Shown: positions 3,242 to 61,575 of the stretch, in pieces
Layout of the letters: each line of letters opens with the position of its first letter
Position numbering within the stretch: the first letter of the stretch is position 1
DNA from: a virus
Taxonomy: Duplodnaviria; Heunggongvirae; Uroviricota; Caudoviricetes
Length of the DNA stretch: 64,000 nt
Strand: one strand, 5' to 3'
Virus record (IMG/VR): IMGVR_UViG_3300011155_000013
Location: 18,941 to 82,940 of that record
Translations under genes and position numbers: made by a program
Notes under the pieces: generated by a model
Told to the model about the DNA's origin: nothing
The model's database searches: none
The model's input: the letters and a program-made list of their open reading frames with translations, nothing else

Positions 3242-3256
3242 CCGTATTTACAGGTC
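3242..3256. promoter_or_regulatory. dispersed motif copy (ccgtatttacaggtc)
   Basis: Seen in sequence. Confidence 0.4.
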
Positions 3257-3275
3257 GACGGACGGATTCGTTCCG

Positions 3276-3992
3276 TTAGACGGCTGCGACCTTGCCGCCG
3301 GCGCGCTTCGACTTGCCAGCCTGACCGGATTTCAGCAGCTCGGCGGCCTTGTCAGCGTCGATAGGCTCGACTTTGCTAGCCAGTTGACTCGCAACAAAGT
3401 CAACCGTGACGAACAAGTCGGACAGTTGCTTGGCCAGTTCGCGGGCCTCCTCTGCCGTGGCGGAAAACGCTTTCGAGTTGATCGCGTCGAGCGCTTTGGT
3501 CAGTTGATTGGCGACGGTCGAAGCCTTCAGCGTGACCGGCTTTGGCTCTTTTGCGGCCTTTTCCAGCGTGCGCCACTCGTCGAAAGTTAGAGCGAAGTCT
3601 GCCGCGTCGACAATGGCGGGCTTGCCGGCGTCGTCGAGGTTCGCCGGGTTGGCGAACTTTTGAAAGCGCGGATTATCGGCCTTCATCCGGGCGACGATAT
3701 AGCGGCCGGTTTTGGCGTCGAGCTGAATTTGCGGCGCGTGCGCTTTGATATACGCGACCACTTCGCCGCCGAGTTTCGACAGCTTGCCAGTAGTAAGGCG
3801 AAACGCGCCATTTTGCAGCATGGCGTTCAATGGCTCGATGTTGTGGTGGGCAACGGCATGGATGGCGCAGTAGTTCGCCCATACAGTGATCGCCTCTGAT
3901 TGAGCGGCAAGGCCCTTGCCGAAAGCTGCGATCTGTTGAGCGGTGATGATTTTGCCGCGGATGGTTATGGATACTTTGTTGGCTTTGGACAT
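3276..3992 (-). CDS. hypothetical protein (238 aa) with a Lys/Ala-rich basic C-terminus; possibly DNA-binding
   Basis: Clean ORF followed by a terminator. No family recognised. Confidence 0.5.
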   Translation of the reverse strand: MSKANKVSITIRGKIITAQQIAAFGKGLAAQSEAITVWANYCAIHAVAHHNIEPLNAMLQNGAFRLTTGKLSKLGGEVVAYIKAHAPQIQLDAKTGRYIVARMKADNPRFQKFANPANLDDAGKPAIVDAADFALTFDEWRTLEKAAKEPKPVTLKASTVANQLTKALDAINSKAFSATAEEARELAKQLSDLFVTVDFVASQLASKVEPIDADKAAELLKSGQAGKSKRAGGKVAAV

Positions 3993-4264
3993 GATGAATT
4001 CCCCTATTCTTTAATGCTTTCTGCAATGTGCTCGCCAATCGGGCACATTGTCGAAGGCACTACGCGAGCGGCCGGCATCCAGGCCGCTCGATTAGTTTCC
4101 TTGCTCCGGTCGATAAGGCCGGTGTGAAGCGCGGGCATCGTTCGGCTTTGGCGCCGGCTTTGGCGGGACTGGCAAAGCTAGCAGGCGAACGACACGCGGG
4201 GCGCAGTAGTGGCGCAGATCGATGGTCGGAGCGTTAGGTTTTTAATGATCCGGCGACCGTATAA

Positions 4265-4279
4265 CTGTAAATACAGGTC
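4265..4279. promoter_or_regulatory. dispersed motif copy (ctgtaaatacaggtc) in the 1-kb non-coding region
   Basis: Seen in sequence. Confidence 0.5.
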
Positions 4280-4911
4280 GCCCAATGCAGTGCAAGCCGT
4301 CGTCTCGATCGTCGGGCATGGCTCCGCCCTGCATGCCCGTAGGCTGCAAAGCGGGGGCGCCATGCTCGCCGTGGCTTTGATCGTCGGGCGTGTCGTCTCT
4401 TGCGCTTTGGTTCCACTATCGGCAATCGGCGCCAGTGTCGCCGAAGGTTCGCCCGAAAGTGGTAGCGCCAGCCCTTGTCAGACAATGGGCGAGACTATCC
4501 GCAACGGCACAAACTGCGCCGTCGTGACTCAATCAAAGCCGCTCGGTCGGAGCGGCAAGCTAGCAGGTTTAAAGAACGGTCAAGGCAAGCGCAAGGCCAG
4601 CCAAGCGGGGCGATGGAGCCAGCCCCGGTGGCCATCAGTAACTGCCTGACCACGGAACAAACTATATACAAGCAAAACGATAGAAACAAGCGTCAAGCAT
4701 GGAAAAGCTAAGAATATAAAAGCATAAGAACATAGCCCCGCCCCCTCTTTTTGGTTATAGAAACCCCATACAGCCCGCCTACCTCCGCGAGCAAAATTTT
4801 TGCAAATTTCCTTTATGGTTATGTTGTTATCACAGTAATTCGCCGATTTTCGCTAAAAGTTGCACAGTCAGGCTTTACAACACTCGCCTCGCTGACTACC
4901 CTCCGAATCTT

Positions 4912-4935
4912 CAAATACAGGTTTACAGGTTCACA
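4912..4935. promoter_or_regulatory. two tandem half-sites (aaatacaggt ttacaggtt), about 30 nt upstream of the HU-like gene
   Basis: Seen in sequence. Confidence 0.5.
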
Positions 4936-4965
4936 GCCTGAATTCACACCAGATCGGAGTCCTCA

Positions 4966-5247
4966 ATGAACTACGCCACCAAAGCCGACCTCGTCGCCGA
5001 CGTAGCCAGCGCCACCGGCCTCACCAAAGCCGCCGCCAAACAAGCAGTCGAAGCCACCCTGTCCGGCATCAGCAAGCTGGCCTTCGAAAAGGGCCACCTC
5101 ACCCTTCGCGGCTTCGGCAAGTTCCGCGCCCGCCGTTACGCAGCTCGCCTGGTCAAGGGAGGCGTCGTGGGCCGCGAAGTGCAAGTACCGGCCCGCACCG
5201 TCCTGACCTACAGCGCCAACCCCGACCAGACCCGCGTCGAGGCATAA
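4966..5247 (+). CDS. HU/IHF-family histone-like DNA-binding protein
   Basis: 93 aa with an HU-like fold signature (LRGFGKF...R...AR). Confidence 0.8.
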   Translation: MNYATKADLVADVASATGLTKAAAKQAVEATLSGISKLAFEKGHLTLRGFGKFRARRYAARLVKGGVVGREVQVPARTVLTYSANPDQTRVEA

Positions 5248-8460: not shown

Positions 8461-8766
8461 TCAGGGGTTACAGAGCTTCTCGTTGAGCTCGTCCACCGGC
8501 GAATCGCTGTAGCGATCACGCAGCTCGAGCGCCTTCGTCTGGAGGATGAAAGGCGCCCACCCAGCCCATCGGCCGTCCGCCGTCTGGTACTTCACCTCTC
8601 CGCATACGACGCCTGGCGCACCGTCGGCGACGTTCCTGAACTGAACGCTGCTTGGGTTGCCGATGAAGTCCGTGTTCTTCGCGGCGTCCATCAGGCGGCT
8701 ATCTGTCCCGTCTTTGCACGCCACCAAAGCCAGCAGCATCGCGGCAGTGAAAATAATTTTGCGCAT
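8461..8766 (-). CDS. small lipoprotein (101 aa) on the opposite strand between terminase and portal; a moron
   Basis: MRKIIFTAAMLLALVAC signal peptide with a lipobox. AAGGTG SD before the ATG at 8766. Confidence 0.6.
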   Translation of the reverse strand: MRKIIFTAAMLLALVACKDGTDSRLMDAAKNTDFIGNPSSVQFRNVADGAPGVVCGEVKYQTADGRWAGWAPFILQTKALELRDRYSDSPVDELNEKLCNP

Positions 8767-8885
8767 GCTTCGCACCTTATCCCTGTGATTTCTGAGAGTA
8801 GCGGCAATCCGCCATTTCAGGCAAGCCACCCAGGGTAAATAGCCTATTGCGTCAAGGGGTTACATCCACAATAATCCGCCTAATT

Positions 8886-8907
8886 CCTGTAAACCTGTAA
8901 ATACAGT
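8886..8907. promoter_or_regulatory. half-site plus full motif (cctgtaaa cctgtaaatacagt), ending 2 nt before the portal ATG
   Basis: Seen in sequence. Confidence 0.5.
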
Positions 8908-8909
8908 TA

Positions 8910-10367
8910 ATGGCGAAACGCTCACCAGGTTCGGATTCATCTCGGTACCAGCAAGCTGGTTCGAATGTCGTGCTGCCTACGAGAAACCTCGCAGGTAAGG
9001 CCAGAGCAAAGCGCCCAGGATCTGACTTCGATCGGGGTCAGTCGATCCGGAACGAACTCAACCAGTACGTTTCGAAAGCGATCCGCGATATCCGCGAGCG
9101 GTCCGATGTCAACGACATCATCCGCACGCTGATGCGTGAGGACGGCCTCTTCAGCTCAGCCGCCAACAGCATGGTTGCCTTGGCTGCCAACAGTGGCTAC
9201 CGCCTGGCCTGCTACAACGCAGAAGGGGCGATGGACCTGGCAGTGATGGGCACCGCCTACTCGCTGCTGGACCGCCTGAGCACGCTGCACGACTACAGCC
9301 AGGGCTTCAACGATAAGCCGGGCATGCAGTCCCTGCTGACCACCCTGCAGATCGATGTGATCGGCACGGGCGGCTGCGGTGTCGAGCTGGTACTGGACAA
9401 GGCGTTTGGCCCGGAGCGGCTGGTCCCGGTTGGCTATTCCACAATCCAGTGGGAGGCCGACGGCAAGGGCGGTCGCTACCCGACGCAGGACAACGGCGAG
9501 ATCGACCTGAACCTGCCGACCGTCTTCATCGCCGAGCACAACCGCAACGCCGACGAGGCCTATGCGGTGAGCCTGCTCCGGCCCGGCCTGACGCACACGA
9601 TCAACTTCAACGAGTTCCTGGAAGACACCAACCGCGCCGTGAACCGCACCGGTCACAGCCGTCTGGTGGCCACGCTGATCAGCGAGAAGGTTCTCGCCGC
9701 AGCGCCTGACCAGGTCAAGAACGACCCGGCCAAGCGCAACGAGTTCTTCAACCAGGTCCGCACCCAGGTCGAGGAAGCGCTCGAAGGCCTGGAGCCGGAA
9801 GACGCCCTGGTGGCCTATGACAGCGTCACGTACGAGGTCAAGGACACCGGCGGCAGCAAGGCTGACTACAGCCCGATGCTGACCACGCTGGGCAACTTGC
9901 TTGGCGCGTCACTGAAGACTCCGGCGTCAGTCAGCGGCCTACGTGCTGAAGGCGGCCAGGGCCTTTCCAACGCCGAGACGCTGATCTACCTCAAGGTGGT
10001 CGAGGCAGCTCGTCCGCCGGTGGAAGAGGCAATGAGCCGAGCCCTGACCCTGGCAGTGCGCCTGCTCGGTGTAGAAGGCCACGTCTACTTCGAATTCCTG
10101 CCAGTGAACCTCCGTCCGGAGGAAGAGCTGGAAGCCTACAAAGGCACCAAGCAGAAGCGCGTTCTCGAGCTGCTCAGCCACGGCCTGATCAACGATGCAG
10201 AGGCCTGCTACCAGCTCGGCGTGCGCCCACAGGGGCTCATCTGGTTGCTGGCCGGTACCGGCTTCTACGGCAAATCCGCGCCGACCGGAGAAGGTGAGCG
10301 TGAGAGTTCGACCGGCCGCGCGCTGAACCCAGGCACTCCGAGCAAATCCGGGGGCGACGACCAATGA
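8910..10367 (+). CDS. portal protein
   Basis: 485 aa. Position between terminase and protease. Acidic, Gly-rich C-terminus. Confidence 0.6.
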   Translation: MAKRSPGSDSSRYQQAGSNVVLPTRNLAGKARAKRPGSDFDRGQSIRNELNQYVSKAIRDIRERSDVNDIIRTLMREDGLFSSAANSMVALAANSGYRLACYNAEGAMDLAVMGTAYSLLDRLSTLHDYSQGFNDKPGMQSLLTTLQIDVIGTGGCGVELVLDKAFGPERLVPVGYSTIQWEADGKGGRYPTQDNGEIDLNLPTVFIAEHNRNADEAYAVSLLRPGLTHTINFNEFLEDTNRAVNRTGHSRLVATLISEKVLAAAPDQVKNDPAKRNEFFNQVRTQVEEALEGLEPEDALVAYDSVTYEVKDTGGSKADYSPMLTTLGNLLGASLKTPASVSGLRAEGGQGLSNAETLIYLKVVEAARPPVEEAMSRALTLAVRLLGVEGHVYFEFLPVNLRPEEELEAYKGTKQKRVLELLSHGLINDAEACYQLGVRPQGLIWLLAGTGFYGKSAPTGEGERESSTGRALNPGTPSKSGGDDQ

Positions 10368-12297: not shown

Positions 12298-12321
12298 AGC
12301 AGACCTGTAAATACAGGTCTG
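12298..12321. promoter_or_regulatory. 24-bp perfect palindrome gcagacctgta-aa-tacaggtctgc containing the motif, about 30 nt upstream of the major capsid gene
   Basis: Seen in sequence. Confidence 0.6.
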
Positions 12322-12352
12322 CTAACCCCCAGATATACAGGAAAAAGTCAGT

Positions 12353-16181: not shown

Positions 16182-17216
16182 ATGCCAGTCAAGAGCTTTA
16201 CCGATACCTCCGCCGTTTCGCTGGCATACGCGATCGGTGACGGAACCACTGCCGCCGAGTTCGCCGGCCAGACGTTCAACTACATCCCCTTCACCACCGA
16301 AGGGTTCAACATGGCCAAGGAGGCGAAAACCTCCACTGCGATCACCAACGATCGCCGCCAGAGCAACTCCAAGAACACCAAAGGCAGCGCATCCGGTGCG
16401 GTCACCATGGAGTTCGGCGCCACGCCGTTTATCCAGGACATGCTGTCGCTGGGGCTGATGAACGAGTGGACTCCGGTCGATGAACTGGACACCACCAAAG
16501 GCGTGTTCATCACCGACGGCGACATCAAGAAGTTCATGGCGGTGGAGAAGACGGCCAAGAGCGGACCGGATGCCACCGACACGCTGTTCCATGAGCGCTA
16601 CTACGGCACCATGGTCAACGACTTCACCCTGGAGTTCGGGGACGGTGAGCTGATCACCATGGCACTGAACACCATTTCGATGTTCGCCGATTACGGCAAG
16701 GCGGCTGCAGGCGCCGACGGCCTCGGCGGCAGTATCGCAACTGCGAAAGCGGTACCGGCTGACTATGAGATCGCCGACAGCTCCAACAACCTGAAGAACC
16801 TGATCCTCAAGGATCCGGAGGGCAATGCCCTGGAGGTTGTGTTCTCGGACGCATCGCTGCAGATCCAGAACAACGTCCGCGAGCAGTCCGGCCTGGGCTT
16901 CGAGTTCGCCGCCGGCGTGGGTATGGGTAAGGTAGGCGTCGCGCTGTCCGGCGAGATCTACTTCTTCGACCAGACCATGCTGGACGCGCACATGAAGAAC
17001 AAGCGTCTGTCCGGTGAAATGACCGTCGATACGGCGGAGGGCACGTTCCATATCCTCCTGCCGAACCTGGTTGCGCAAAGCCCGTCGAACAGCGCTGACG
17101 GCGAGAACCAGGACTACAAGACCTCGCTCACCTTGACGGCTGAGAAAGGCACCGTAGAGATCGGTGGCGTGCAGCGTGTCTGCGCCGTGGCTATCACCTA
17201 CGTCGCCAAACCGTAA
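16182..17216 (+). CDS. major tail protein
   Basis: 344 aa. GAGAGG SD. Position before the chaperones and tape measure. Confidence 0.55.
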   Translation: MPVKSFTDTSAVSLAYAIGDGTTAAEFAGQTFNYIPFTTEGFNMAKEAKTSTAITNDRRQSNSKNTKGSASGAVTMEFGATPFIQDMLSLGLMNEWTPVDELDTTKGVFITDGDIKKFMAVEKTAKSGPDATDTLFHERYYGTMVNDFTLEFGDGELITMALNTISMFADYGKAAAGADGLGGSIATAKAVPADYEIADSSNNLKNLILKDPEGNALEVVFSDASLQIQNNVREQSGLGFEFAAGVGMGKVGVALSGEIYFFDQTMLDAHMKNKRLSGEMTVDTAEGTFHILLPNLVAQSPSNSADGENQDYKTSLTLTAEKGTVEIGGVQRVCAVAITYVAKP

Positions 17217-17238
17217 ATACGGAAAGCTGTAAATATGG
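17211..17238. promoter_or_regulatory. ccgtaaatacgg plus ctgtaaatatgg motif variants between the major tail and chaperone genes
   Basis: Seen in sequence. Confidence 0.5.
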
Positions 17239-23342: not shown

Positions 23343-23692
23343 AAATGGACGAATTCCTTGCCGCAGGAGCCCCCGACTGGGGGATCTCCGATGAACCTAA
23401 GGCCGACGTAATCGAGGTCCGTCTCGGCGACGGATACACGCTGAGGCAGCCAACCGGCATAAACCATGTGAGAGACGGTTGGTCGCCGGTATGGTCAGGT
23501 CTTGAGAAAGAGGATGCCAGGGCCGCTTACGCATGGCTGCGTTCACGGTTAAAGCTGACTCCGTTCCTATGGGTTCACCCAGTTACTGGGCAACCGGTGA
23601 AGGTCATCTGCCAGTCGGTCAGGCTGGAATATAACCAGTTCAACGACGAGATTCTGTCCGCCACGTTCGAGCAGGATTTCAACCCCTCCTGA
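23339..23692 (+). CDS. minor tail protein, lambda gpM-like
   Basis: 117 aa directly after the tape measure. Confidence 0.5.
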   Translation: MKMDEFLAAGAPDWGISDEPKADVIEVRLGDGYTLRQPTGINHVRDGWSPVWSGLEKEDARAAYAWLRSRLKLTPFLWVHPVTGQPVKVICQSVRLEYNQFNDEILSATFEQDFNPS

Positions 23693-23715
23693 CCTGTATT
23701 TACATAAATACAGGT
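23692..23715. promoter_or_regulatory. acctgtattta-ca-taaatacaggt extended palindrome between the gpM-like and gpL-like genes
   Basis: Seen in sequence. Confidence 0.55.
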
Positions 23716-23756: not shown

Positions 23757-24464
23757 ATGAGTAACGTAATCGCCTCCGACGCCCAGAAACTATCGCAGGA
23801 CGCGATAGTGACTATGTTCGAGCTGGACGCAAGAAAGTTCGGCGACGGGATTCTCAGGTTCTCAAACACGTCCGTAGACGGCTTGCCGATCAGCTTCAAC
23901 GGCTACCAGTACACCCCGCTGCCGATTACGGCGGAGGGGTTTACCTGGAACGGCAGCGGGACGCTTCCCCGGCCCACTCTAACGCTAGCGGCCAAGGACT
24001 TGGTGTTCCTGAGCCTGGTCGTCAACTCAGACGACCTCATCGGCTGCCCAGTTAAGCGAATCCGCACTTACCGGAAGTATCTGGACGACGGAGCTACCCC
24101 GAACCCGGAGGCCATGTTCCAGCCTGACTACTACGTCATCGAGAAGAAGACCTCGCAGAAGCGCACCCAGCTGCAGTTCGAGCTATCCACGAAGATGGAC
24201 CAGCAAGGCCGGATGATACCCAACCGGCAGGTGTTGCGTGATTCGTGCACTCACCGGTTCCGCTACTGGGCCAACGGCACCTGGAACTACGACGGCGTGA
24301 CCTGTCCGTACGCAGGCGCAGCCATGTACAAGGTCAACGGCGAGGCGACCTCTGACCCAGCAGAGGCCAAATGCGGCAAGCGCATCACAGACTGCAAGAT
24401 CCACTTCGGCGAGACCGCGGTACTGCCTTTCTACGGCTACCCGGGCGTGGCGAGGTACCAGTGA
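23757..24464 (+). CDS. minor tail protein, lambda gpL-like
   Basis: 235 aa with a C-terminal 4-Cys cluster (C..C..C..C), as in gpL. Confidence 0.55.
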   Translation: MSNVIASDAQKLSQDAIVTMFELDARKFGDGILRFSNTSVDGLPISFNGYQYTPLPITAEGFTWNGSGTLPRPTLTLAAKDLVFLSLVVNSDDLIGCPVKRIRTYRKYLDDGATPNPEAMFQPDYYVIEKKTSQKRTQLQFELSTKMDQQGRMIPNRQVLRDSCTHRFRYWANGTWNYDGVTCPYAGAAMYKVNGEATSDPAEAKCGKRITDCKIHFGETAVLPFYGYPGVARYQ

Positions 24465-29375: not shown

Positions 29376-29702
29376 ATGTCTGCGGGATTACAGGTATGGG
29401 ATTCTGATGGCCGAATGGTTCTAGATACTACTGTGCTAGTGGGTAGGATATTTGGCCACACTATAATGTTGGAAAACCAAGCTAATGGAGTTGTTACCCA
29501 TCCCGGATTATCTTCAGGCACCCCTTTTGCCTTCCCTTTGATGCCTTTCATCCCTGAGAGGGGCTTCGGTGTAACAGCCGCCGCAACCTTGCCCAGATTC
29601 AGCTTCTCTGGAAATACCATGACATGGACGCGCGGCGCCGTGGACTCAGGCGGAGGCGTTGAAAATCTGCCTCGTGGAATAATTTACTTTGGAGCGTACT
29701 GA
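29376..29702 (+). CDS. hypothetical tail-associated protein (108 aa)
   Basis: ORF between the J-like and fibre genes. Confidence 0.35.
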   Translation: MSAGLQVWDSDGRMVLDTTVLVGRIFGHTIMLENQANGVVTHPGLSSGTPFAFPLMPFIPERGFGVTAAATLPRFSFSGNTMTWTRGAVDSGGGVENLPRGIIYFGAY

Positions 29703-30379
29703 TGCCTGCCGGGTTTACAGTTATAAATGACTCCGGGTCATATCAGGTGGACGGCGACTATCCTTGCATGGCTTTGATCCGCAAGGGCTCGCTTATTACT
29801 CAAACAGCACCTACAGATACAGTCGCATCGGAGGTGAAAGTCCCTCTTGCAGACGGTGAAATTATTGCTTTTTCGTGCGCAATACCAACGGCAATCGTTG
29901 GCTTCTCCGATGGAGAGGTTTATCTTCGAACAGACGCCCCCGCGGGGGTTCTACTAAACTACTGGATATTTTCGACGACACAGCAGGAATCAAGCTTCGG
30001 ACTCCAAGCGTATGATGAGGTCGGCGGGCTGATATTCGACTCTTCATGGAAGCTTCTTAATATCGTAGGTACTCAAGTGGGAAGCGGTAACTATTCATAC
30101 GCTCCAGGCAGAGAATACGCGGTCATACCACAATCTGTATTGGTATCGATTCGTAGGCTACTGTATTACCAAGGGATTCATCCGCACGTTTACAACATAT
30201 TCGAACGCTGGTTGACCTTCGATGCTGCAAGCGTATCTTCCGGAAGTATTGTTGTTGGCCCTGCCACCCTCGAAATTCAAACATGGATTACAGAAGGGCC
30301 GGTTGGGGAAGGGTGGGATTTTTTTGGAAACAATGGCAACACCACACAGTACATTGTGGTAGACGTAACAGGCTTTTAG
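29702..30379 (+). CDS. hypothetical tail-associated protein (225 aa)
   Basis: ORF with an ATGA overlap to the upstream gene. Confidence 0.4.
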   Translation: MPAGFTVINDSGSYQVDGDYPCMALIRKGSLITQTAPTDTVASEVKVPLADGEIIAFSCAIPTAIVGFSDGEVYLRTDAPAGVLLNYWIFSTTQQESSFGLQAYDEVGGLIFDSSWKLLNIVGTQVGSGNYSYAPGREYAVIPQSVLVSIRRLLYYQGIHPHVYNIFERWLTFDAASVSSGSIVVGPATLEIQTWITEGPVGEGWDFFGNNGNTTQYIVVDVTGF

Positions 30380-30511
30380 CTCGCGACTCGTGCCGGCACG
30401 CCGCGGATGGAGAAGCTCGAGGCGTTCAAATGCCAGGGTAGCTACGTCTGGAGATTGGTCGACGGACGGGCTAGTAGCAGCTAGCCCTCCCTGCTATCCT
30501 CACACCCATAA

Positions 30512-30527
30512 ACCTGTAAATACGGTT
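30512..30527. promoter_or_regulatory. acctgtaaatacggtt, ending 5 nt before the tail fibre ATG
   Basis: Seen in sequence. Confidence 0.5.
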
Positions 30528-30532
30528 ACCCC

Positions 30533-32659
30533 ATGTCAGCCACCAATTTCCCCGAGTTCAACGCCGCCGTCACCGAACTGACCACGAAAGTCAGCACCCT
30601 CCTGGGCGACGTCGCCACGATGCAGTCGGTGGCGAACGTCCAAGTGGCTGTTGACAAGGCGGCTGAAGCATCAACCTCCGCAACAGAAGCAGCGGCGAGC
30701 GAGGCCGCGGCGGCGTCCAGCGCGGTTCAGGCAGCGGCGAGCGAGACAGCTTCAGAAACCGCCAGGACTGTGGCGGAGTCAGCTCAATCAGCAGCAGCTG
30801 CGAGCGAGACCGCAGCCGCCGGCTCTGCCTCTACCGCGAGTACGAAGGCGAGCGAGGCATCTACATCGGCGGCCAACGCCGCCGCGAGCGAGACCGCAGC
30901 CGCCGGCTCTGCCTCTACCGCGAGTACGAAGGCGAGCGAGGCATCTACATCGGCGGCCAACGCCGCCGCGAGCGAGACCGCTGCACACGCTGCCAAGATT
31001 GGCGCGGAAGCAGCTCGTGATAGGGCGGAGACCGCCGCTGCCACCGTAACTGGTAACCTGATCGAGATGGGTGGCGTAAGTCTGGCCTCGGGGGTGTACC
31101 CGGCAAAGCCGGCGAACAACGGGGCCTTTTGGAAGGTGACAACTGGCGGAACGGTTGACGGCGTCGAGTATGGGGTTGGCGACACCCTTATCTACTCGAA
31201 AAACCTTGACCAGTTCTACAAGATCGACAACACCGAAAGCGTAACCTCGGTAGCAGGCAAAACCGGCGTCGTGACTTTGACAAAGGCCGATGTGGGCCTC
31301 GACAACGTCGATAACACCAGCGATGCGAGTAAGCCGATTTCCACGGCCACCCAAACCGCGCTGGACGCCAAGGCACCTTTGGCCTCTCCGGCGTTGACCG
31401 GTACGCCTACGGCACCTACGCCAGCGGCAGGTACGAACACGACCCAGATTGCCAATACCGCGTTCGTGCAGGCAGCGCTGGCCGCTCTGGTGGATAGCTC
31501 GCCTACCGCGCTGGACACGCTAAATGAGCTGGCAGCTGCCCTGGGCGATGACCCCAACTTTGCCACGACGATGACCAATGCACTGGCGCTGAAAGCCCCT
31601 CTTGCCTCGCCTGCACTGACGGGTAACCCCACTGCACCCACGCCTGCTGCTGATGACAGCGGCACGTCGATTTCGACGACTGCCCATGTGAAGGCGGCGA
31701 TGGCGTTGTTTGGTGTGGGAGGGGCTAAGTCGCTAGAGTTCGTTAACCTAGACTCCGTACATGTAAGCGGCTTCTACTCCGTTGATCAGTGTCCAGGTGG
31801 CCCCAACGGAGGACAGGGTAACGGGATGCTACTCGTTACTGGGTCAGGCTATGTAAGCCAGCAGACCTATCACCCATATGGCACCAGTACGACCTATGCC
31901 CGAAGTAGAGTAGGTACTACATGGTCCGCTTGGTCAGAACTCTGGCACACCGGCAACCTCGTCAAGCAGTCCTCGCCAACCGACACCACTGCCGGGGCGC
32001 TGATGGCGGTGGGGGCTGGCGGGTGGATGGGGAGAGCGTCAAATAACGATAGCTATATTGCGGGTTATCCACAGGACATTGGGGAAAATATTTCTCAGAT
32101 ATATAGGCGGAGCGTTGGGGATATGGGGGTGCCTGGATATTCCGCTTCTTTACACTTTGCTGCAGTCGACACATGGGGGAGGGTGCGGATAAGTCACTAC
32201 ACCCCCAGGGCATGGATTCAAGGGGGGACTGCTTCTACTGGAACTGGATGGACCGCAGAGCTATACCACACCGGCAACATCCTCGGCACCGTCTCCCAAT
32301 CCGCAGGCGTACCTACCGGCGCAATCATCGAGCGCGGCAGCAATGCCAATGGGGAGTACGTGCGGTTTGCAGATGGGACGCAGATTTGCCTAAAGAAGAT
32401 ACCCGCCAATGTGGCCATTAGCACCGCTGGATCGAGCTTATATTGGACTGGGGAGCCCATACCGGGCGGGCAGTTCGCCGCGTCGTTTACCGAGGAGCCC
32501 AGCGTAACCATGTTCGTAACAGGTAATTTTCCCTCAATGTTACAGGGTGGGGAGGGGCTGACAGCGACAGCATTTGGCATTTTTTATCAATACTCAGACG
32601 CTATGCGGCCATTATCAAGCTACATCTATCATCTGCGTGCCGAAGGGCGCTGGTACTAA
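30533..32659 (+). CDS. tail fibre protein with an Ala/Ser-rich repeat region and phage tail-fibre repeat motifs (KAPLASPALTG.PTAPTPAA x2)
   Basis: 708 aa with repeats characteristic of phage tail fibre repeat families. Confidence 0.7.
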   Translation: MSATNFPEFNAAVTELTTKVSTLLGDVATMQSVANVQVAVDKAAEASTSATEAAASEAAAASSAVQAAASETASETARTVAESAQSAAAASETAAAGSASTASTKASEASTSAANAAASETAAAGSASTASTKASEASTSAANAAASETAAHAAKIGAEAARDRAETAAATVTGNLIEMGGVSLASGVYPAKPANNGAFWKVTTGGTVDGVEYGVGDTLIYSKNLDQFYKIDNTESVTSVAGKTGVVTLTKADVGLDNVDNTSDASKPISTATQTALDAKAPLASPALTGTPTAPTPAAGTNTTQIANTAFVQAALAALVDSSPTALDTLNELAAALGDDPNFATTMTNALALKAPLASPALTGNPTAPTPAADDSGTSISTTAHVKAAMALFGVGGAKSLEFVNLDSVHVSGFYSVDQCPGGPNGGQGNGMLLVTGSGYVSQQTYHPYGTSTTYARSRVGTTWSAWSELWHTGNLVKQSSPTDTTAGALMAVGAGGWMGRASNNDSYIAGYPQDIGENISQIYRRSVGDMGVPGYSASLHFAAVDTWGRVRISHYTPRAWIQGGTASTGTGWTAELYHTGNILGTVSQSAGVPTGAIIERGSNANGEYVRFADGTQICLKKIPANVAISTAGSSLYWTGEPIPGGQFAASFTEEPSVTMFVTGNFPSMLQGGEGLTATAFGIFYQYSDAMRPLSSYIYHLRAEGRWY
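30800..30985. repeat. 84-bp (28-aa, in-frame) perfect tandem repeat x2.2 inside the tail fibre gene
   Basis: Identical units begin at 30800, 30884 and 30968. Confidence 0.85.
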
Positions 32660-33019: not shown

Positions 33020-33348
33020 CCATCGACTGGAGCCAACTGAAAACCGCTGAACAGAAAGCTGATGAGGCTGCACAAGCGGCGCGCGAGGCGTGGAAGGCAC
33101 GCCGCGCCGAGGCGGTGCGCAACATCAAGGTGACCACCACCAGCGGCCGGGTTTTCGACGGCGACGAAGCCAGTCAAGGCCGCATGGCCCGCGCCATCCT
33201 CGGCCTGCAGGAAGCCGGCGAGGGTGCCACCGTGACCTGGGTGCTGGCGGACAACGCGCCGGTGGCCGTGACTGCCGCCGAGCTGTCCGAGGCGCTGCAC
33301 CTGGCCGGCGCCGAGCAGGCGCGGCTATGGGTGGCCAGCCATGAATAA
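33016..33348 (+). CDS. hypothetical protein (110 aa), possible tail fibre assembly factor
   Basis: Called on position only. Confidence 0.3.
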   Translation: MTIDWSQLKTAEQKADEAAQAAREAWKARRAEAVRNIKVTTTSGRVFDGDEASQGRMARAILGLQEAGEGATVTWVLADNAPVAVTAAELSEALHLAGAEQARLWVASHE

Positions 33349-33640
33349 GCTGGACCTGACCGCCTACGTGGCCCGCTACGGCCGCCGGCCCTACTGGCTG
33401 TCGCTGCTGATCGCCCTGGATCAGTTCGTCAACGCGCTGCTGTGGGGCTACGTCGACGAAACGCTGTCGAGCCGGGCCTATCGGAGCGCCCAGCTGCGCA
33501 CGCCGGCGAAACGCCGCTGGCGGCTGGCTGAACAGCTGATCAATGCGCTGTTCTGGCGGGACCGCGTGGGCGAGCTGCGGCACTGCCAGCTGGCGTACCT
33601 GGGCGAACTGGCGCGCGAGCATTTACCCAAAGACCTGTAA
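33341..33640 (+). CDS. hypothetical protein (99 aa)
   Basis: ORF. Its stop lies inside a copy of the dispersed motif. Confidence 0.35.
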   Translation: MNKLDLTAYVARYGRRPYWLSLLIALDQFVNALLWGYVDETLSSRAYRSAQLRTPAKRRWRLAEQLINALFWRDRVGELRHCQLAYLGELAREHLPKDL

Positions 33641-33664
33641 ATAAGGGTTCCCATAAATACGGCC
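33632..33664. promoter_or_regulatory. split site cctgtaaata-(9 nt)-ataaatacgg, overlapping the stop of 33341..33640 and upstream of the spanin genes
   Basis: Seen in sequence. Confidence 0.45.
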
Positions 33665-35788: not shown

Positions 35789-37015
35789 CTACCCCTTCAC
35801 ACAAAGAACTTGCCGAAGGGTATGAACCACTTCGATCAGATCCGATTGGGCGGCCATTACCGCGTCGATATCCTTGTAAGCACCAGGTGTTTCATCGAGG
35901 ACACCCTCGTCTTTCCGGCACTCAACACCTTCTGTGGCCTTTATGTGATCCTCAAGCGTGAACCTGCGTTTTGCCTCTGCACGACTCATAGCCCGGCCGG
36001 CGCCATGTGAACAGCTGCAGAACGACTGTGCGTCCCCCTTTCCTCTGACGATGAAAGAGCGAGCACCCATGCTGCCAGGGATGATGCCTAAATCACCAGC
36101 ACGGGCCCGTACAGCCCCCTTTCTGGTAACCATCACGTTATCGCCAAAGTGGTTCTCCCAGGCGACGTAGTTGTGGTGGCAGTTGACCGCTGCACAATCA
36201 CAGGAGAATGGCTTCGGCACTGCTGCTGACAGCGCGTCTATCGCCTCCGACATCATCAGTTCGCGGTTCACGCGGGCAAACGTCTGCGCCCATTCAACAG
36301 CCTCGCAGTAGTCAGCAAACAGCTCAGAGCCCTGCGGCAGATAAGCCAGGTCCTGGTCGGGCAGGTTGATGTGCCACCGGCGCATTTCTTCTTTGGCCCG
36401 CTCGATAAAATATGAGCCGATCGCATTGCCGATTCCGCGTGAACCGGAGTGCAGCATTATCCAAACCCGCTGCTCCTCATCCAGGCAGACCTCGACAAAG
36501 TGGTTGCCGGTACCGAGGGTACCGGCGTGCTTGATGGCACGATTACCGGCACGCTCAAGCTTGGGATGTTTGGCCGTAATTTTCGACAACTGAGCTATCA
36601 GCCCACCCAACTCTGGGTGAGTTGACGCCTTGGGCGCCTGGTCTCCCCACGCACCCCGATCTCCAGGGCCTCCGTTGTTGGTGCGGCCGTGCGGGATCCG
36701 GCGCTCGATCTCGCTGCGGAGTGCTTGGAGGTTATCCGGCAGGTCAGAAGCCGTAAGGGTGGTCCGCTGCGCCGCCATTCCACAGCCAATATCCACTCCG
36801 ACCGCAGCGGGAATCACCGCACCTTTCGTAGCTATCACGCTGCCGACGGTCGCCCCCATTCCCCAGTGCACATCCGGCATAGCTGCGATGTGCGAGTGGA
36901 TGAAGGGGAGTCCTGCCAGGTTGCGCAGCTGCTTCTTGGCAGCTTCTTCAACCTGCACGCCACGGACCCATGCCTTGATTGGGCGACCTTCGCTTTCGAT
37001 CAGTTGAAACGTCAT
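35789..37015 (-). CDS. rtcB: RtcB-family RNA 3'-phosphate ligase
   Basis: 408 aa with multiple His/Cys metal-site motifs conserved in RtcB (e.g. GTGNHF, NCHHNY, SCSHGAGR). Confidence 0.85.
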   Translation of the reverse strand: MTFQLIESEGRPIKAWVRGVQVEEAAKKQLRNLAGLPFIHSHIAAMPDVHWGMGATVGSVIATKGAVIPAAVGVDIGCGMAAQRTTLTASDLPDNLQALRSEIERRIPHGRTNNGGPGDRGAWGDQAPKASTHPELGGLIAQLSKITAKHPKLERAGNRAIKHAGTLGTGNHFVEVCLDEEQRVWIMLHSGSRGIGNAIGSYFIERAKEEMRRWHINLPDQDLAYLPQGSELFADYCEAVEWAQTFARVNRELMMSEAIDALSAAVPKPFSCDCAAVNCHHNYVAWENHFGDNVMVTRKGAVRARAGDLGIIPGSMGARSFIVRGKGDAQSFCSCSHGAGRAMSRAEAKRRFTLEDHIKATEGVECRKDEGVLDETPGAYKDIDAVMAAQSDLIEVVHTLRQVLCVKG

Positions 37016-40608: not shown

Positions 40609-40941
40609 TCATGGCTGACCTCCGTCTGCGTCGTAGATGCACGCAGGGCGGCGGAACTCAATGACCTCGCCGTTCTCCTCCTTCCAGTCCATCGCTGAGC
40701 CGAGGTGGCACTTGTCGGTGCGAACCGCGTAGTGGACCTGGCAGCCGGCAATAACCAGATCACCGACCTGCACGTACCAATTGGTCGATCGTGCGTTGGT
40801 TCGAATGCCCAGTGTCTTCTCATCGCTGTGGACGCCGTGGACTGTGCCGTAGGCAGCTCGGTATTGCCTTCCGTCAGGCGCGAAGAAGAAACAGTCGGTG
40901 GTGATCAGGACCTTGGTTCCTATCTCAAACTGATGACTCAC
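40609..40941 (-). CDS. hypothetical protein (110 aa)
   Basis: ORF with 4-nt overlaps with both neighbours. Confidence 0.45.
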   Translation of the reverse strand: MSHQFEIGTKVLITTDCFFFAPDGRQYRAAYGTVHGVHSDEKTLGIRTNARSTNWYVQVGDLVIAGCQVHYAVRTDKCHLGSAMDWKEENGEVIEFRRPACIYDADGGQP

Positions 40942-41972
40942 ACCGCCACCTCCTTCGCCAACTCGCTGAACAGGTCAGCCAAATCGCTACCTTCCAACTC
41001 GCGGCTGATGCGGGTGCGCAGATCCTCGACTACCGGCTTCTCCGCCTCGTCGTCGACTACGTTCACGCCGGCCACCGAGACGCTGTTGCGAACTGCCAAT
41101 GCGTCCGGGGCGTTCTCCCACACCATCTGCATGAAGTCGGCGACAGCCACGGCCTCGTCCGCAGCGCCAATCACGTCGATGAACTGCACGCCACTCAGGT
41201 CCGGCAGCTCCTGACCGAACATGACTGACGCGAAGCGCTCGTCCTTGGACCAGATGCGGGTTTTGGTGAGATCAATGCTGTCGTCGGTGATCTCCAGCTG
41301 GTAGGAGAACTTGTCGCTGATATCGGCAAACGACGTCGGGTGCGTGTTGCCCAGGATCACCACTCGGCCGTCGAAGTGGGTGGACGGCTTGTGCTCGTGG
41401 CCGAGGAAGATGTAGTCGAACGACTCCAACAGCTTCTGCGCGATTGCCGGCGACAGGTTGAGGGTGTCGTCCTCGGTGGCGAAGGGCTGGTCGTAGTTGC
41501 AATGCAGCATCAAGACGCTGGCCCGGCCGGCGCGCTCACAGGCCGCATGCTCAGCGGCGTCCAGCATTGCCTGCTCGAACAGCTCCTGACTGGCGTGGTG
41601 CGGGACGAAGTAGAGCGGTTCGAAGTTGTCGAAGTAGGGCTCCGACAAGCTGGGCGAGGAGATGATCGCGCAGCCCATTTCCTGGAGCGCGCGGAGGCTT
41701 GTGATGGTCCCTTCGCGGTTGGTCTCGTCGTGGTTGCCGGCCAGCGTCCACATGCAGTTGCTGGCGATCTCGTAACCCTGGACCAAGATCGATTCGTCGT
41801 TGAAGGCGCGGTCGAACAGGTCGCCCAGGCAGATCGGCTTCTCCGCGTCCTCAATGACGTCCCACGCCTGCTTGAACAAGGCGAGGGTCAGGTGCTTGGA
41901 GGACTCGCGGGTGGTATGCGCTGCCCGGCGGGTGCCGAGGTGTGGATCGGTGAAGAGCGTATACGTCGTCAT
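40938..41972 (-). CDS. SbcD/Mre11-like metallophosphoesterase nuclease
   Basis: N-terminal DPHLG motif. The later GNHD and GHEH motifs are typical of the calcineurin-like nuclease family. Confidence 0.8.
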   Translation of the reverse strand: MTTYTLFTDPHLGTRRAAHTTRESSKHLTLALFKQAWDVIEDAEKPICLGDLFDRAFNDESILVQGYEIASNCMWTLAGNHDETNREGTITSLRALQEMGCAIISSPSLSEPYFDNFEPLYFVPHHASQELFEQAMLDAAEHAACERAGRASVLMLHCNYDQPFATEDDTLNLSPAIAQKLLESFDYIFLGHEHKPSTHFDGRVVILGNTHPTSFADISDKFSYQLEITDDSIDLTKTRIWSKDERFASVMFGQELPDLSGVQFIDVIGAADEAVAVADFMQMVWENAPDALAVRNSVSVAGVNVVDDEAEKPVVEDLRTRISRELEGSDLADLFSELAKEVAV

Positions 41973-42063
41973 AACAGGCTTCCTGTAATTACGGCACTAA
42001 GAGCCCACCCCGCCGCTTGCGCGGCGAGGAGGGTGACGGCGAAGTGGCGGAGGGCGCGGCGGG

Positions 42064-43382: not shown

Positions 43383-43406
43383 GTTGTGCTTCCGTTGTTA
43401 CGGGTT

Positions 43407-43429
43407 GCTGTATTTACAGCAATACAGGT
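43407..43429. promoter_or_regulatory. ctgtatttacag plus caatacaggtt, upstream of the DNA ligase gene (minus strand)
   Basis: Seen in sequence. Confidence 0.55.
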
Positions 43430-43947
43430 TGGCTTGCAAGAGTAGCGGCCATCGTGGGCAGTGCGAAGTAGTCCACCAGCCCTCGACTGACGACGTCCGC
43501 GTTCAGCTTTACGCCGTGGCCGGCATTCTCGATGGAGGCCAGCAGGTAGTCCTTACTGATCCGCTCCTCCTGCACCACTGCAGCGCCGTCCCAGATCTGA
43601 ATCACGCCGCGCTCCGCGTCGTAGAACAGGACCAGGTAGGGGAGCTTGAGCAGCTCTCGGTAGAACGAGATGGCGCCGCGCTGGGCCGGCTGCATCGCCT
43701 GCTTGGTCAGCGTCGAGTTCTTCTCGCTGGCCTTCACTTCGCAGAAGAACAGCCGCTGGCCGGCCAGCGGTGAGCGAGCACCTGCCGGCAGGGCCAGCAG
43801 GTAGTCACTTGGCTGTGCAGCCACGATGGAGCCGCCGGCGGCACCGGTGTCGGCCAGGCGGTGCCAGCCCAGAAGGTGGCTCTCGCGCAGGGCGCGGAAC
43901 ACCTTCTGGATCTCCTTCTCGAAGATCTTGCCTATGTCCGTAGACAA
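43414..43947 (-). CDS. hypothetical protein, possible PD-(D/E)xK-type nuclease (about 177 aa; the TTG start is uncertain)
   Basis: The 3' part of ORF 43414..44286 looks real. GAGGTGAT SD lies before a TTG at 43947. A D...EVK-like motif is present. Confidence 0.35.
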   Translation of the reverse strand: MSTDIGKIFEKEIQKVFRALRESHLLGWHRLADTGAAGGSIVAAQPSDYLLALPAGARSPLAGQRLFFCEVKASEKNSTLTKQAMQPAQRGAISFYRELLKLPYLVLFYDAERGVIQIWDGAAVVQEERISKDYLLASIENAGHGVKLNADVVSRGLVDYFALPTMAATLASQPVLL

Positions 43948-49067: not shown

Positions 49068-49077
49068 GGTGAACTCC

Positions 49078-49113
49078 TTAAATACGGGATCTATTGCCCC
49101 ATAAATACAGGTT
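49078..49113. promoter_or_regulatory. two half-sites (ttaaatacggg ... ataaatacaggtt) upstream of the Pol A gene; the proximal one overlaps its SD
   Basis: Seen in sequence. Confidence 0.5.
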
Positions 49114-49329: not shown

Positions 49330-51345
49330 TCATTTCACTTCACAGCCGCCTGCGCCGCAGGCGATTTCACCTGTCAGGTCGGTGTTGTCATCGCGCTCAA
49401 CCACTCGGGTGAGATCGATGGCCGTTACCGTGCCGATCAGGTCGCGGTATTGCTCAGCCGTGATGTCCTCAAACGGGGCCTGCTGGTAGGTGCCGCCGTC
49501 ATATGGCAGGACGCTGATGCCGTTGTAGAGGTCGCGGTTTTCCCACATCCACCGGCTGACCAGAGGCCACTCGTCGTCCTTCACACTGATCGTGCAAGAC
49601 ACGTTGTGAGTGTTGTCGCCGCTGACGTGGCCAGCGCGGACCCATTCCAGGTTGAACCGCTTGACTCGTTCCAGCAGAGACTCAGGCGACTCCGTACGCA
49701 GGATCGCGCCTTCAGGTGCTTTTTGCGGCACGCTGATGACGGCTTGCTCTTGCGGGCGGAAGTATTCGTCTTCGACCAGCTCAGGGTGGTGCTCAGCCAG
49801 GTACTGGTAGATCGCCTCGTTTTTGCCGACGCGGACTCGGCGGATGTAGTAGGGGGCGTGCCAGGCGTGAATGCCGGAGGCGCTGCCCAGGACCAGCGAG
49901 GTGGTGCCGGCGGGCTTGACGGTGCTGGTACGAGCCGCGACGTTGATGCCGATGATGGCTGCAACCCGGGCGTTCTCCTGCTTCACCACCTCAGCCGCCT
50001 CGGTCAGGTCCAGCGGCAGCACCGCACCGGAGCCTATGCCTGTCATGCCGACACCGATCAGTGCGTCTTCTTCGGTGGTCTGCTTCCAAACCGGGCGCAG
50101 GTAGTGGAAGTCAGTGAAGCCAGCCTGCAGCGTTCCGATAAACGCGGCGGCGCGGGCTCGAGCATTCAGTTCCTCCTGGGTGAAGGCGTCGTCAGCGTTG
50201 ATCTCAGTCAGGTTGCAGAACTGGTTAGGTTTGAGCCCGATCTCGCAGCAGGGGTTGGTACCCCAATCGAGATTGTTGGTCCAGTACACCCCCGGCTCGC
50301 CGGCGCCGCTGGCTTCTACCGTGGCCATGAGGTCCATGAACTCGGCTTCGGTCAGGCTGCCGCGGAGCAGGTTGGCGCTGTTGTTTGCCCGGCCGCGTTG
50401 CGGCTCGAAGAGGTACCAAGGGAGGGTGCCGGCGTCCTTCCATGCGTCCAGTTGGGACTGGTGGAGAATGACGTTGTGGTAGTCACGGCCAGCTGCAGTG
50501 ATGTCGCACTCGAACAGTTCGTTGCTGCCTGCCAGTGGCTCCGTGCGATGGAATGTGCAGCGCAGGTTGGACTTGCAGGTGAGCATGTCCTGGTCGTCGA
50601 GGTCGAACAGCACGATCATAGCAGCTCGTCGAATGCCGCCGGCCAGCACCGCGTCCGCGATGTGGCAAAGCATGTCATGCACTTCGATCGGTTTCAGACT
50701 GGTACCGGCACCGCGCTCTGCGATCGCCTGGTCCATCACCTGCTGAAGTTTCTGCAGGCAGGTGGCCAGCGGCTGCGGGCCTGGCGCTTTGCCGCCGGAA
50801 GTGATCAGACGGGCGCCTTTGGGTCGTACATCGCTGAAGTCGAAGCGTGGCAGGTCTCGGCCAAGGAAGTAGGCCTTGACCAGCATCTTGACTGCATCGG
50901 CCCAGCCTTCGATTGAGTCGCCGACTACGAAACGGCGGGAGTCCTTCGAGGGGCCAACCAAGGCAGGCAGCCGGCCTACGTGGCGACGCTGCACGGAGTA
51001 GCCGAGGCCGGTACCGCCCAGCAGCAGGAACATGGCTTCACTGAACACGGCAGGGTGGTCAGCAGGGGCAAAAGCACAGTTGAAGATGCGACTCTGGGTC
51101 AGCTCGATCGGCGCTCCGCCGAACTGCAGACTGCGCATCGACGGCAGCACTTTCTTGGTGAGCACGAACTCCTTGTACACCCGCTGGATCTCGGCACGGA
51201 GTTGAGGGTAGCGGCGGACGTGCATGGCCATGTTGCGCTCGCACAACTCTTCCCAGGTCTCGCGGCGGGCGATCTCCGGGACGTGGCGGGCATATTTCAT
51301 ATGCGTCGTCAAGGAACTTAATACTTCTACTGATACATCTTTCAT
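49330..51345 (-). CDS. ribonucleotide reductase, class II-like (single-chain)
   Basis: Active-site motifs NPCCEI and CNLTEIN. 671 aa. Start coupled to the endoVII stop. Confidence 0.7.
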   Translation of the reverse strand: MKDVSVEVLSSLTTHMKYARHVPEIARRETWEELCERNMAMHVRRYPQLRAEIQRVYKEFVLTKKVLPSMRSLQFGGAPIELTQSRIFNCAFAPADHPAVFSEAMFLLLGGTGLGYSVQRRHVGRLPALVGPSKDSRRFVVGDSIEGWADAVKMLVKAYFLGRDLPRFDFSDVRPKGARLITSGGKAPGPQPLATCLQKLQQVMDQAIAERGAGTSLKPIEVHDMLCHIADAVLAGGIRRAAMIVLFDLDDQDMLTCKSNLRCTFHRTEPLAGSNELFECDITAAGRDYHNVILHQSQLDAWKDAGTLPWYLFEPQRGRANNSANLLRGSLTEAEFMDLMATVEASGAGEPGVYWTNNLDWGTNPCCEIGLKPNQFCNLTEINADDAFTQEELNARARAAAFIGTLQAGFTDFHYLRPVWKQTTEEDALIGVGMTGIGSGAVLPLDLTEAAEVVKQENARVAAIIGINVAARTSTVKPAGTTSLVLGSASGIHAWHAPYYIRRVRVGKNEAIYQYLAEHHPELVEDEYFRPQEQAVISVPQKAPEGAILRTESPESLLERVKRFNLEWVRAGHVSGDNTHNVSCTISVKDDEWPLVSRWMWENRDLYNGISVLPYDGGTYQQAPFEDITAEQYRDLIGTVTAIDLTRVVERDDNTDLTGEIACGAGGCEVK

Positions 51346-52579: not shown

Positions 52580-52595
52580 CCTGTAAATACAGGTT
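52580..52595. promoter_or_regulatory. cctgtaaatacaggtt, immediately upstream of and overlapping the SD of the ThyX-like gene
   Basis: Seen in sequence. Confidence 0.55.
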
Positions 52596-55111: not shown

Positions 55112-55156
55112 CTGTATCTACAGAAATACAGGAATACGGTCGTGGCTTTATACAGG
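55112..55156. promoter_or_regulatory. cluster of four sites or half-sites (ctgtatctacag, aaatacagg, aatacgg, ttatacagg) upstream of the 274-aa gene
   Basis: Seen in sequence. Confidence 0.55.
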
Positions 55157-61552: not shown

Positions 61553-61575
61553 CTGTATACCTGTAAATACAGGTT
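61553..61575. promoter_or_regulatory. ctgtatac plus cctgtaaatacaggtt, upstream of the Dda-like helicase gene
   Basis: Seen in sequence. Confidence 0.55.

Follow-up and report, generated by a model that had tools for sequence, protein, structure and literature searches.

Whether a repeated sequence that touches the start codons of phage genes acts on the DNA or on the transcript is the question raised by the portal locus of the 64-kb stretch of viral DNA analyzed herein (positions 18,941 to 82,940 of the IMG/VR record IMGVR_UViG_3300011155_000013, class Caudoviricetes; hereafter the window), the G+C content of which is about 60%. A near-palindromic motif with the 12-nt core CTGTAAATACRG stands immediately before the portal ATG, and further copies precede, among others, the genes for the tail fibre, ThyX, and Pol A. 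A sequence-only reading of the window had proposed that the motif, being transcribed into the 5′ untranslated region, regulates translation through an RNA hairpin or a bound protein. As judged from the arrangement, conservation, and surroundings of its copies, the motif is probably an operator that works at the DNA level. Protein binding, the protein concerned, repression, and the transcription start sites are what we infer here.

Box arrays and the gene starts they touch

The features of the portal and tail-fibre loci are as follows (here and below, arrays are given without a strand).

8847 to 8875, plus strand: predicted sigma70-type portal promoter, with TTGCGT (8847-8852), a 17-nt spacer, and AATAAT (8870-8875)
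8887 to 8906: portal array of three boxes, CTGT-aaac-CTGT-aaat-ACAG, unchanged in 10 relatives while its flanks diverge
8910 to 10367, plus strand: portal gene, ATG at 8910, without a Shine-Dalgarno (SD) sequence
30506 to 30525: tail-fibre array, CCAT (degenerate)-aaac-CTGT-aaat-ACGG
30533 to 32659, plus strand: tail-fibre gene, ATG at 30533, without an SD

Positions 8886-8912 read CCTGTAAACCTGTAAATACAGTTAATG, and the 12-nt core within them (8895-8906) ends 3 nt before the portal ATG. The abutment pointed out in the sequence-only reading was thereby borne out, and its distance of 2 nt was not, since the 16-mer form of the motif would end 1 nt before the ATG. At the fibre gene the core occupies 30514-30525 and ends 7 nt before the ATG, the 16-mer spanning 30512-30527 exactly as had been claimed.

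In the window, about 61 of the 77 gene calls have a recognizable SD, and the energies of the SD:anti-SD duplex calculated with the 16S tail showed a gene median of -6.2, with values of -4.3 for ThyX and -8.7 for Pol A. The portal value of +0.9 kcal/mol was the weakest of 79 genes, and that of the fibre gene, -2.4, was at the background level (median -2.5), in agreement with the earlier statement that neither start has a separate SD. The absence of an SD at both genes is real and exceptional.

The suggestion that the annotated start codons might simply be wrong did not withstand comparison with relatives. All seven lineages compared retain the portal ATG, among them the Pseudomonas phage Lana, which, like the Pseudomonas phage PMBT3, is a distant relative only (72-77% identity across a few genes). 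The frame of the 20 residues that follow this ATG is held through indels of +1 and +2 codons, and shared N-terminal residues are kept through synonymous changes (SRY being encoded by TCT CGG TAC or TCG AGG TAC). The sole alternative start downstream, GTG 8970, is GTT or ATT in relatives, and an in-frame TAA (8898-8900) within the motif rules out an earlier one. For the fibre gene, an earlier start is likewise barred by an in-frame TAA (30509-30511) lying eight codons upstream in the degenerate box; the G+C content at third positions of the first 29 codons amounts to 83%; and the N-terminus MxATNFP is conserved, reading MSATNFP in the window and MAAATNFP in the relative L167, in which this N-terminus follows 16 nt after a motif copy of opposite orientation. 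The fibre protein is mosaic, and this N-terminus is kept in L167 only; gene 29702-30379, tried as a probe for the fibre region, yielded no relatives. At ThyX, the N-terminus MKAVYEN or a close variant of it was found at most of the 28 loci compared.

The annotated GTG 1975 start of Lana at first favored a downstream start for the portal protein, which is ruled out by an in-frame ATG at 1915 followed by homologous residues; the deposited Lana portal annotation (L132, 1915-1975) seems to be 20 codons too short. Since the homologous ATG of Lana is preceded by the SD-like sequence AGGGAAG, the array in the window may have displaced an ancestral portal SD. Between the terminase and portal genes lies an opposite-strand gene (8461-8766, minus strand) for a probable lipoprotein (MRKIIFTAAMLLALVAC...) of moron-like character, to which no gene corresponds at the terminase-portal junction of Lana. 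Its insertion may explain why the portal gene has a promoter and an operator of its own.

The copies at these two loci belong to a pattern that runs through the whole window. CCTGTAAATAC at up to one mismatch gave 11 matches against 0.22 expected, and the 12-nt core at up to two mismatches gave 31 against 3.3 expected. As many as 21 of 22 sites are intergenic, with 7.3% of the window being non-coding (P about 3e-23), and a site is present in about 15 of the 21 gaps between genes that measure 60 nt or more. A survey of half-sites demonstrated that the 12-mer is the mere center of larger arrays, which form a lattice of tetramer boxes, CYGT or ACRG, in a uniform 8-bp register. The 4-nt spacers between the boxes are AT-rich (AAAT, AAAC, ATTT, GTTT, CAAT, and similar) despite the 60% G+C of the genome. 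Direct repeats of the pentamer half-site (CYGTA or TACRG) are spaced by exactly 8, 16, or 24 bp, and convergent pentamer pairs by exactly 7, 15, or 23 bp (that is, 8, 16, or 24 for the tetramers), about 0.1-0.3 being expected per spacing class; no other spacing was enriched in the window or, independently, in eight relatives. Arrays of at least three boxes in strict register numbered nine against 0.17 in shuffled sequences, and all nine are intergenic. The longest comprises five boxes, and boxes occur in both direct and inverted orientation. A strict 8-bp register of direct and inverted boxes is a protein-DNA grammar and has no meaning for a hairpin.

Start codons are found within 10 nt of only about 6 of the roughly 21 sites, the remainder standing 15-60 nt upstream or at gene ends; abutment on start codons is not general to the motif. 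The TAA within the motif also serves as the stop codon of three genes (17214-17216, 33638-33640, and 43414-43416).

The motif is restricted to one clade: relatives whose portals are 80-98% identical possess it, whereas phage Lana and ThyX relatives below about 75% identity do not. An exact 14-mer scan of viral contigs, tried as a means of defining this range, returned nearly only single chance matches in unrelated contigs. In the relevant papers among the literature searched, the motif string was not found, and the box sequence CYGT/ACRG is new. A palindromic repeat that merely spreads, or a recombination boundary, with no regulatory role in either case, would account for the breaks of homology near copies (the ThyX copy, for instance, lies about 9 nt downstream of the point at which L135 and the window part) and for the loop inversions described below, which suggest template switching. 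The core, however, is constant among phages whose portals are just 80% identical while the flanks diverge, and the copies are precisely placed relative to promoter elements and gene starts in a strict array grammar, so that such an origin is barely credible to us.

At several other genes the array runs into the ribosome-binding site, the relevant features being listed below.

52581 to 52592: ThyX site in a 28-nt intercistronic gap; ACAG followed by GAAG forms the SD AGGAAG, 6 nt before the ATG at 52572 (gene on the minus strand)
49076 to 49110: region upstream of Pol A, with a good copy at 49099-49110 and a degenerate one at 49076-49087; ATG at 49067 (gene on the minus strand)
43392 to 43427: five-box array upstream of DNA ligase; the last box, ACGG, followed by AAG forms the SD, and TAA is the stop of gene 43414-43947
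41983 to 41994: site 10 nt upstream of gene 40938-41972; ACAG followed by GAAG forms the SD
12305 to 12316: capsid-upstream copy, within an extended palindrome of 22 bp

The spacer that follows the last box at gene starts is GAAG or GAAA rather than the usual GTTN, and the final G of the box together with this spacer provides the SD at ThyX and gene 40938-41972 (ACAG-GAAG), at the ligase gene (ACGG-AAG), and at the capsid gene (ACAG-GAAA), where a lone ACAGG box (12337-12341) supplies AGGA. The minus strand at ThyX reads CCTGTATTTACAGGAAGCAGAATG (...TTTACAGGAAGCAGAATG), in which AGGAAG shares AGG with the motif end, and the overlap proposed earlier for this gene was thus confirmed. For Pol A, to which the same overlap had been ascribed, the minus strand reads CCCGTATTTAAGGAGTTCACCATG; the copy concerned is a degenerate one in which AAGGAG, the second half, constitutes the SD. 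In the divergent relative L155 (14039-14074), two motif copies upstream of Pol A form the arms of a long palindrome, CTGTAAATACAGGGCC-GTAA-GGCCCTGTATTTACAT.

Predicted promoters, probable operators, and transcripts

Alignments of relatives revealed sigma70-like promoters with conserved hexamers and diverging spacers, four of which, with predicted starts, lie next to arrays. These calls are based on conservation in the alignments and not on a sigma70 scan. At the portal gene, TTGC and (A/T)ATAAT are invariant in alignment A1 (mean column identity 74%), the promoter lies 11 nt upstream of the array, and transcription is predicted to start near 8882, so that the array would extend from about +5 to +25 and make up nearly the entire predicted leader of 28 nt. 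The earlier proposal that the motif is transcribed into the 5′ untranslated region is probable on account of this conserved promoter. The other three pairs of promoter and array are the following.

55112 to 55155: array of four boxes, with one more box 16 bp further, over the -10 (TATAAA, 55152-55147) and about +1 to +28 of the minus-strand promoter TTGACG-N17-TATAAA upstream of gene 54256-55080
61553 to 61572: three-box array in the leader of a Dda-like helicase gene, about 43-62 nt downstream of the promoter TTGACT-N18-TAGCAT (61651-61622)
62563 to 62582: three-box array that holds the -35 TTGACA of the promoter TTGACA-N17-TAGGAT (62577-62549) of the gene for an Arc-like protein (p68, described below), kept in homologues with 59-89% protein identity

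At all four conserved predicted promoters, the arrays overlap or directly follow the promoter elements, and these positions, insofar as the predictions hold, are typical of repression.

The motif itself is probably not a promoter. A phage-specific promoter in which the TGTAAATA core served as a -10-like element, giving leaderless or very short-leader portal and fibre mRNAs, would fit the position of TAAATA (8898-8903), the last base of which lies 6 nt ahead of the first base of the portal ATG, the right distance for a leaderless start, and it would also fit the presence of the motif before many genes in a window where generic sigma70 promoters are scarce. The motif is, however, a near-palindrome that occurs in both orientations relative to the gene and is flipped at orthologous sites; TAAATA lacks the conserved final T of a -10 element, and no -35 element stands at a fixed distance from it. 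Separate conserved -35/-10 pairs are found upstream of or around arrays, the motif stands anywhere from 3 to 60 nt before the ATG, and copies also occur between a stop codon and a terminator. In addition, a scan of about 40 window proteins revealed neither a sigma factor nor an RNA polymerase. These characteristics make a promoter function quite unlikely. As for termination, an intrinsic-terminator test flagged the ThyX copy alone, on the antisense strand, the other copies being devoid of a T-run, and a generic terminator scan of the window gave counts at or below the shuffle level.

An RNA-level element, namely the transcribed motif acting as a hairpin in the 5′ untranslated region or as a protein site that occludes or replaces the SD, would be in keeping with the probable transcription of the motif at the portal and helicase genes, and with its standing in place of the SD at two genes and having bases in common with the SD at four or five more. 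Such an element would be comparable to the start-associated sequences of cluster K mycobacteriophages (see below). The leaders of the portal, fibre, ThyX, and Pol A genes, however, were no more stable than shuffled sequences (z -0.8 to +0.4), the minimum-energy fold of the fibre leader did not include the motif hairpin, and Rfam gave no match at the gathering score across the whole window. At the capsid site, the central AAAT of the window is ATTT in L001 (13396), L003 (13408), and L007 (11228), between the same flanks and in phages whose portals are 98% identical to that of the window; as read from these alignments, the inversion suggests template switching at the palindrome. The central AA/TT of the fibre site is likewise flipped between the window and L167, so that the loop of a putative hairpin would alternate between AAAU and AUUU at orthologous sites. 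Half-site variants were counted at 66 distinct sites whose sense strand is defined; as sense RNA they would form 18 G·U and 13 C·A pairs (p = 0.47), which gives no indication of selection for pairing in the transcript. Considering also the 8-bp register of direct repeats, the arrays that overlap -35 and -10 elements, and the copies, most of the total, that lie 15-60 nt from a start codon or at gene ends, we regard regulation at the RNA level as quite improbable, and the hairpin put forward in the sequence-only reading was not supported.

The portal and fibre leaders, which are AU-rich and unstructured, would be compatible with initiation independent of an SD and with a low copy number of the proteins. 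That the AU-rich CUGUAAAUACAG leader is read as an SD substitute by a phage factor or the ribosome, the element thereby being an operator on the DNA and a translational signal on the mRNA, nevertheless appears very improbable.

Candidate binding proteins and the prophage

Two genes near the right end of the window encode candidate binding proteins.

62305 to 62511, minus strand: p68, a predicted Arc-like ribbon-helix-helix (RHH) protein of 68 residues, the best binder candidate
63396 to 63659, minus strand: ArsR/SmtB-like winged-helix protein, an alternative binder candidate, the first gene beside the attachment site
63695 to 63729: array upstream of the ArsR-like gene

p68 matched PHROG 582 ('Arc-like repressor') with an E value of 4e-6 and carries the UniRef name 'Ribbon-helix-helix domain-containing protein'; sub-threshold Pfam matches were to the ParD, HicB, FitA, and Arc RHH families. 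Its strand KKFTMDMP is invariant among homologues of 52-100% identity save for conservative changes (K/R, M/T, M/L), the boxes being invariant as well. An array stands upstream of both the p68 gene and the ArsR-like gene, and p68 is encoded in all relatives with the motif that were examined in this region. The cassette ArsR-p212-p68-p102-p112 occurs in all lineages that have the motif and from which this region could be recovered; no such cassette was found in phage Lana, which lacks the motif. Because the array grammar is of the RHH type, p68 is the favored binder, and that it binds the boxes is a tentative assignment with a little less than an even chance of being correct. The contigs L247, L248, L249, and L251 (three metagenome contigs and one provirus call) end exactly at the p68 gene start, which suggests that the p212/ArsR region, immediately upstream of p68, contains either a hypervariable segment or a break in the assembly.

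The boxes might instead be bound by another protein, such as the ArsR-like protein, an HU-like protein (4966-5247), or a host factor, for instance a regulator of the Arc family, with p68 being a local autoregulator or antitoxin. The ArsR-like protein (HTH_20, E 5e-10; HTH_5, E 1e-8; PDB relatives PagR and HlyU) has the largest upstream array, its gene adjoins the attachment site and co-occurs with the motif as p68 does, and the weak Pfam matches of p68 are to RHH families of antitoxin type. On the other hand, box centers that follow one another every 8 bp, up to five in a run, are atypical of winged-helix dimers and typical of RHH proteins (PMC4627068, PMC3413123), and the HU-like gene is present in Lana, which is free of the motif. 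Another binder is, in our estimation, unlikely.

With the motif taken as an operator, the most likely course is that dimers of a small phage-encoded RHH repressor would occupy the arrays cooperatively, and that the bound protein would block initiation or elongation of transcription across both early and late genes. The arrays would do so from positions on top of sigma70-type promoters, shortly after them, or within operons, as with the ThyX copy in its 28-nt gap; for arrays inside operons, a roadblock to elongation would be the sole sensible action. Contact with start codons would then result from minimal packing of promoter, operator, and start. In arrays that reach a gene start, the last box is followed by a free spacer, which may have evolved into an SD, and at the portal and fibre genes, where no SD was kept, low-copy virion proteins would presumably be translated from unstructured, AU-rich leaders devoid of an SD.

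Several observations weigh against an operator bound by p68. The generic sigma70 scan found promoters not to be enriched in the window, at or below the shuffle level, and nothing convincing as a promoter could be found ahead of the fibre and ThyX arrays. None of the Pfam gathering thresholds was reached by p68, and its AlphaFold monomer model, built on a shallow alignment of seven sequences, was of low confidence (predicted local distance difference test score of 65), with the strand modelled as a helix. Co-occurrence cannot tell the binder apart, as p68 and the ArsR-like gene always occur together, and a host factor is possible as well. That the last box repeatedly overlaps the SD would also agree with a factor acting on the mRNA. 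Finally, the capsid copy forms an RNA hairpin of -22 kcal/mol (z -3.65), and its 22-bp palindrome shows two compensatory double changes between relatives, both of which speak for an RNA element; at this one site, the capsid copy may have a local structural role or be a by-product of template switching.

The gene set of the window is of the siphovirus type, with terminase, portal, capsid, a tape measure of 1752 residues, and a tail fibre, and further includes genes for RtcB, an SbcCD-like nuclease, a ligase, Pol A, a class II ribonucleotide reductase, ThyX, a primase, and helicases. The RtcB RNA ligase, the class II (B12-dependent) ribonucleotide reductase, and an SPFH/Band-7 protein are encoded at 35789-37015, 49330-51345, and 53139-53996, respectively. 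The right end of the window leaves the phage.

63868 to 64000, plus strand: 5′ end of host lepA, with the prophage/host junction near 63936

The window thus ends within the N-terminus of the host GTPase LepA, and free-phage relatives carry just the first 24 lepA codons, adjoining a tyrosine integrase gene (for example, L165, 4280-5800). The phage is therefore temperate, with its attachment site (attP) in the 5′ end of lepA; this is where it inserts, providing lepA with a substitute N-terminus, and the window represents such an integrated prophage. An annotated protein identical to p68 occurs in genomes of Stutzerimonas stutzeri, which is probably the host of the prophage.

The remaining arrays and copies in the window are as follows.

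1868 to 1879: weak copy in the gap 1840-1931
3242 to 3261: array between the stop of gene 3276-3992 and an intrinsic terminator (3233-3214)
4257 to 4276: three-box array in the non-coding region 3993-4965 between divergent operons
4909 to 4936: direct-repeat array, ACAG-gttt-ACAG-gttc-ACAG, 29 nt upstream of the HU-like gene at 4966
17211 to 17238: array at the end of gene 16182-17216, with the stop TAA inside the motif, followed by a hairpin
23694 to 23713: site between genes 23345-23692 and 23757-24464
33635 to 33662: two copies, the first holding the stop TAA of gene 33341-33640

Two apparent start codons next to copies were rejected: the 'ATG' at 3235, which lies within the intrinsic terminator, and the ATG at 4285 after the 4265 copy, which is out of frame with the open reading frame (ORF) 4209-4649 and begins no ORF of at least 80 residues. 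The non-coding region of about 970 bp (3993-4965) contains two arrays and a terminator-like hairpin (4065-4090), with the conserved sequence CAATGCAGTGC directly after the 4265 copy, and may hold regulatory, origin, or packaging signals; a rough gene caller placed a single ORF of 32 residues (4613-4711) in it. Elsewhere, within 880-1015, a very AT-rich (TA)n tract lies near 900-970, and a 12-bp inverted repeat, CTTATGCGTATA-N6-TATACGCATAAG (986-1015), lies just 3′ of a Bro-N-like gene inside a gene-free gap of 826 bp. ARAGORN called a 95-nt tRNA-Ile (41281-41375, plus strand) antisense within gene 40938-41972, which is probably a false positive.

Comparison with known systems

The SOS box of gammaproteobacterial LexA, CTGT-N8-ACAG, has the same CTGT...ACAG arms as the window motif. 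The spacer of the latter, however, is 4 nt instead of 8, and extra boxes continue its 8-bp register, a spacing that a LexA dimer would not fit; this identity was therefore rejected. The late promoter of phage T4 is TATAAATA, and both it and the TyrR box were rejected as identities of the motif on spacing or symmetry.

The closest likeness is to the operators of RHH proteins, namely ParG (O_F of TP228), omega of pSM19035, and MetJ, which share with the window arrays a fixed register of 7-8 bp, direct and inverted boxes, a minimal unit of two boxes, arrays of 3-10, a position over or after the -35/-10 elements (predicted in the window), and, provided that p68 is the regulator, an array on the regulator's own promoter. 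Omega2 binds unspaced heptads of 7 bp in direct or direct-plus-inverted repeats, two heptads being the minimum (PMC4627068). The boxes bound by ParG, eight ACTC tetramers in direct or inverted orientation, lie downstream of the -10 and are separated by AT-rich spacers (PMC3413123), the latter again as in the window, and MetJ binds tandem 8-bp met-boxes (PMC3413123). The differences are that these regulators have one to four operators whereas about 20 arrays are spread here across a phage genome of 60-80 kb, that the box CYGT/ACRG has no counterpart among them, and that p68 is a predicted binder. Should p68 indeed bind, it would be an RHH repressor whose arrays, about 20 in number, punctuate nearly every transcription unit of a temperate phage of Pseudomonas type. 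Regulons and immunity groups in this prophage clade could then be predicted in a simple manner, and the 8-bp lattice would offer a compact, portable operator for synthetic biology. The portal and fibre genes are, moreover, clean natural cases of essential virion genes without an SD, useful for studying SD-independent initiation in pseudomonads.

A genome-wide silencing layout of this kind has so far been known mainly from the unrelated stoperators of mycobacteriophages. In cluster A phages (L5 gp71 type), these are asymmetric 13-bp sites bound by a monomeric two-domain repressor in one orientation relative to transcription (PMC9283540). Likeness lies in the temperate lifestyle, in the number of sites (more than 20, against about 21 intergenic ones here), in their location at promoters and in short gaps of early and late operons, and in some copies inside operons where only a block to elongation makes sense. 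The window sites are nevertheless near-palindromic lattices of free orientation, and both the host phylum and the protein fold differ, so that they are not stoperators in the strict sense.

The start-associated sequences (SAS, with the linked ESAS) of cluster K mycobacteriophages resemble the motif in being phage-specific repeats that take the place of a ribosome-binding site a few nt ahead of start codons; stop codons of upstream genes sometimes fall inside the repeat in either case. SAS are asymmetric, contain AGGAG, and stand in one orientation 3-7 bp before nearly every associated start, at non-structural genes (PMC3203893). The window motif, in contrast, lacks AGGAG, occurs in both orientations and before both gene classes, and lies 3-60 nt from the start; it does not belong among the SAS. 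For the linked inverted repeats of ESAS, departures between the arms were found not to support RNA pairing, and protein-DNA sites were considered more likely (PMC3203893). By analogy, the same reasoning would apply to the window motif, for which it likewise points to a protein bound to DNA.

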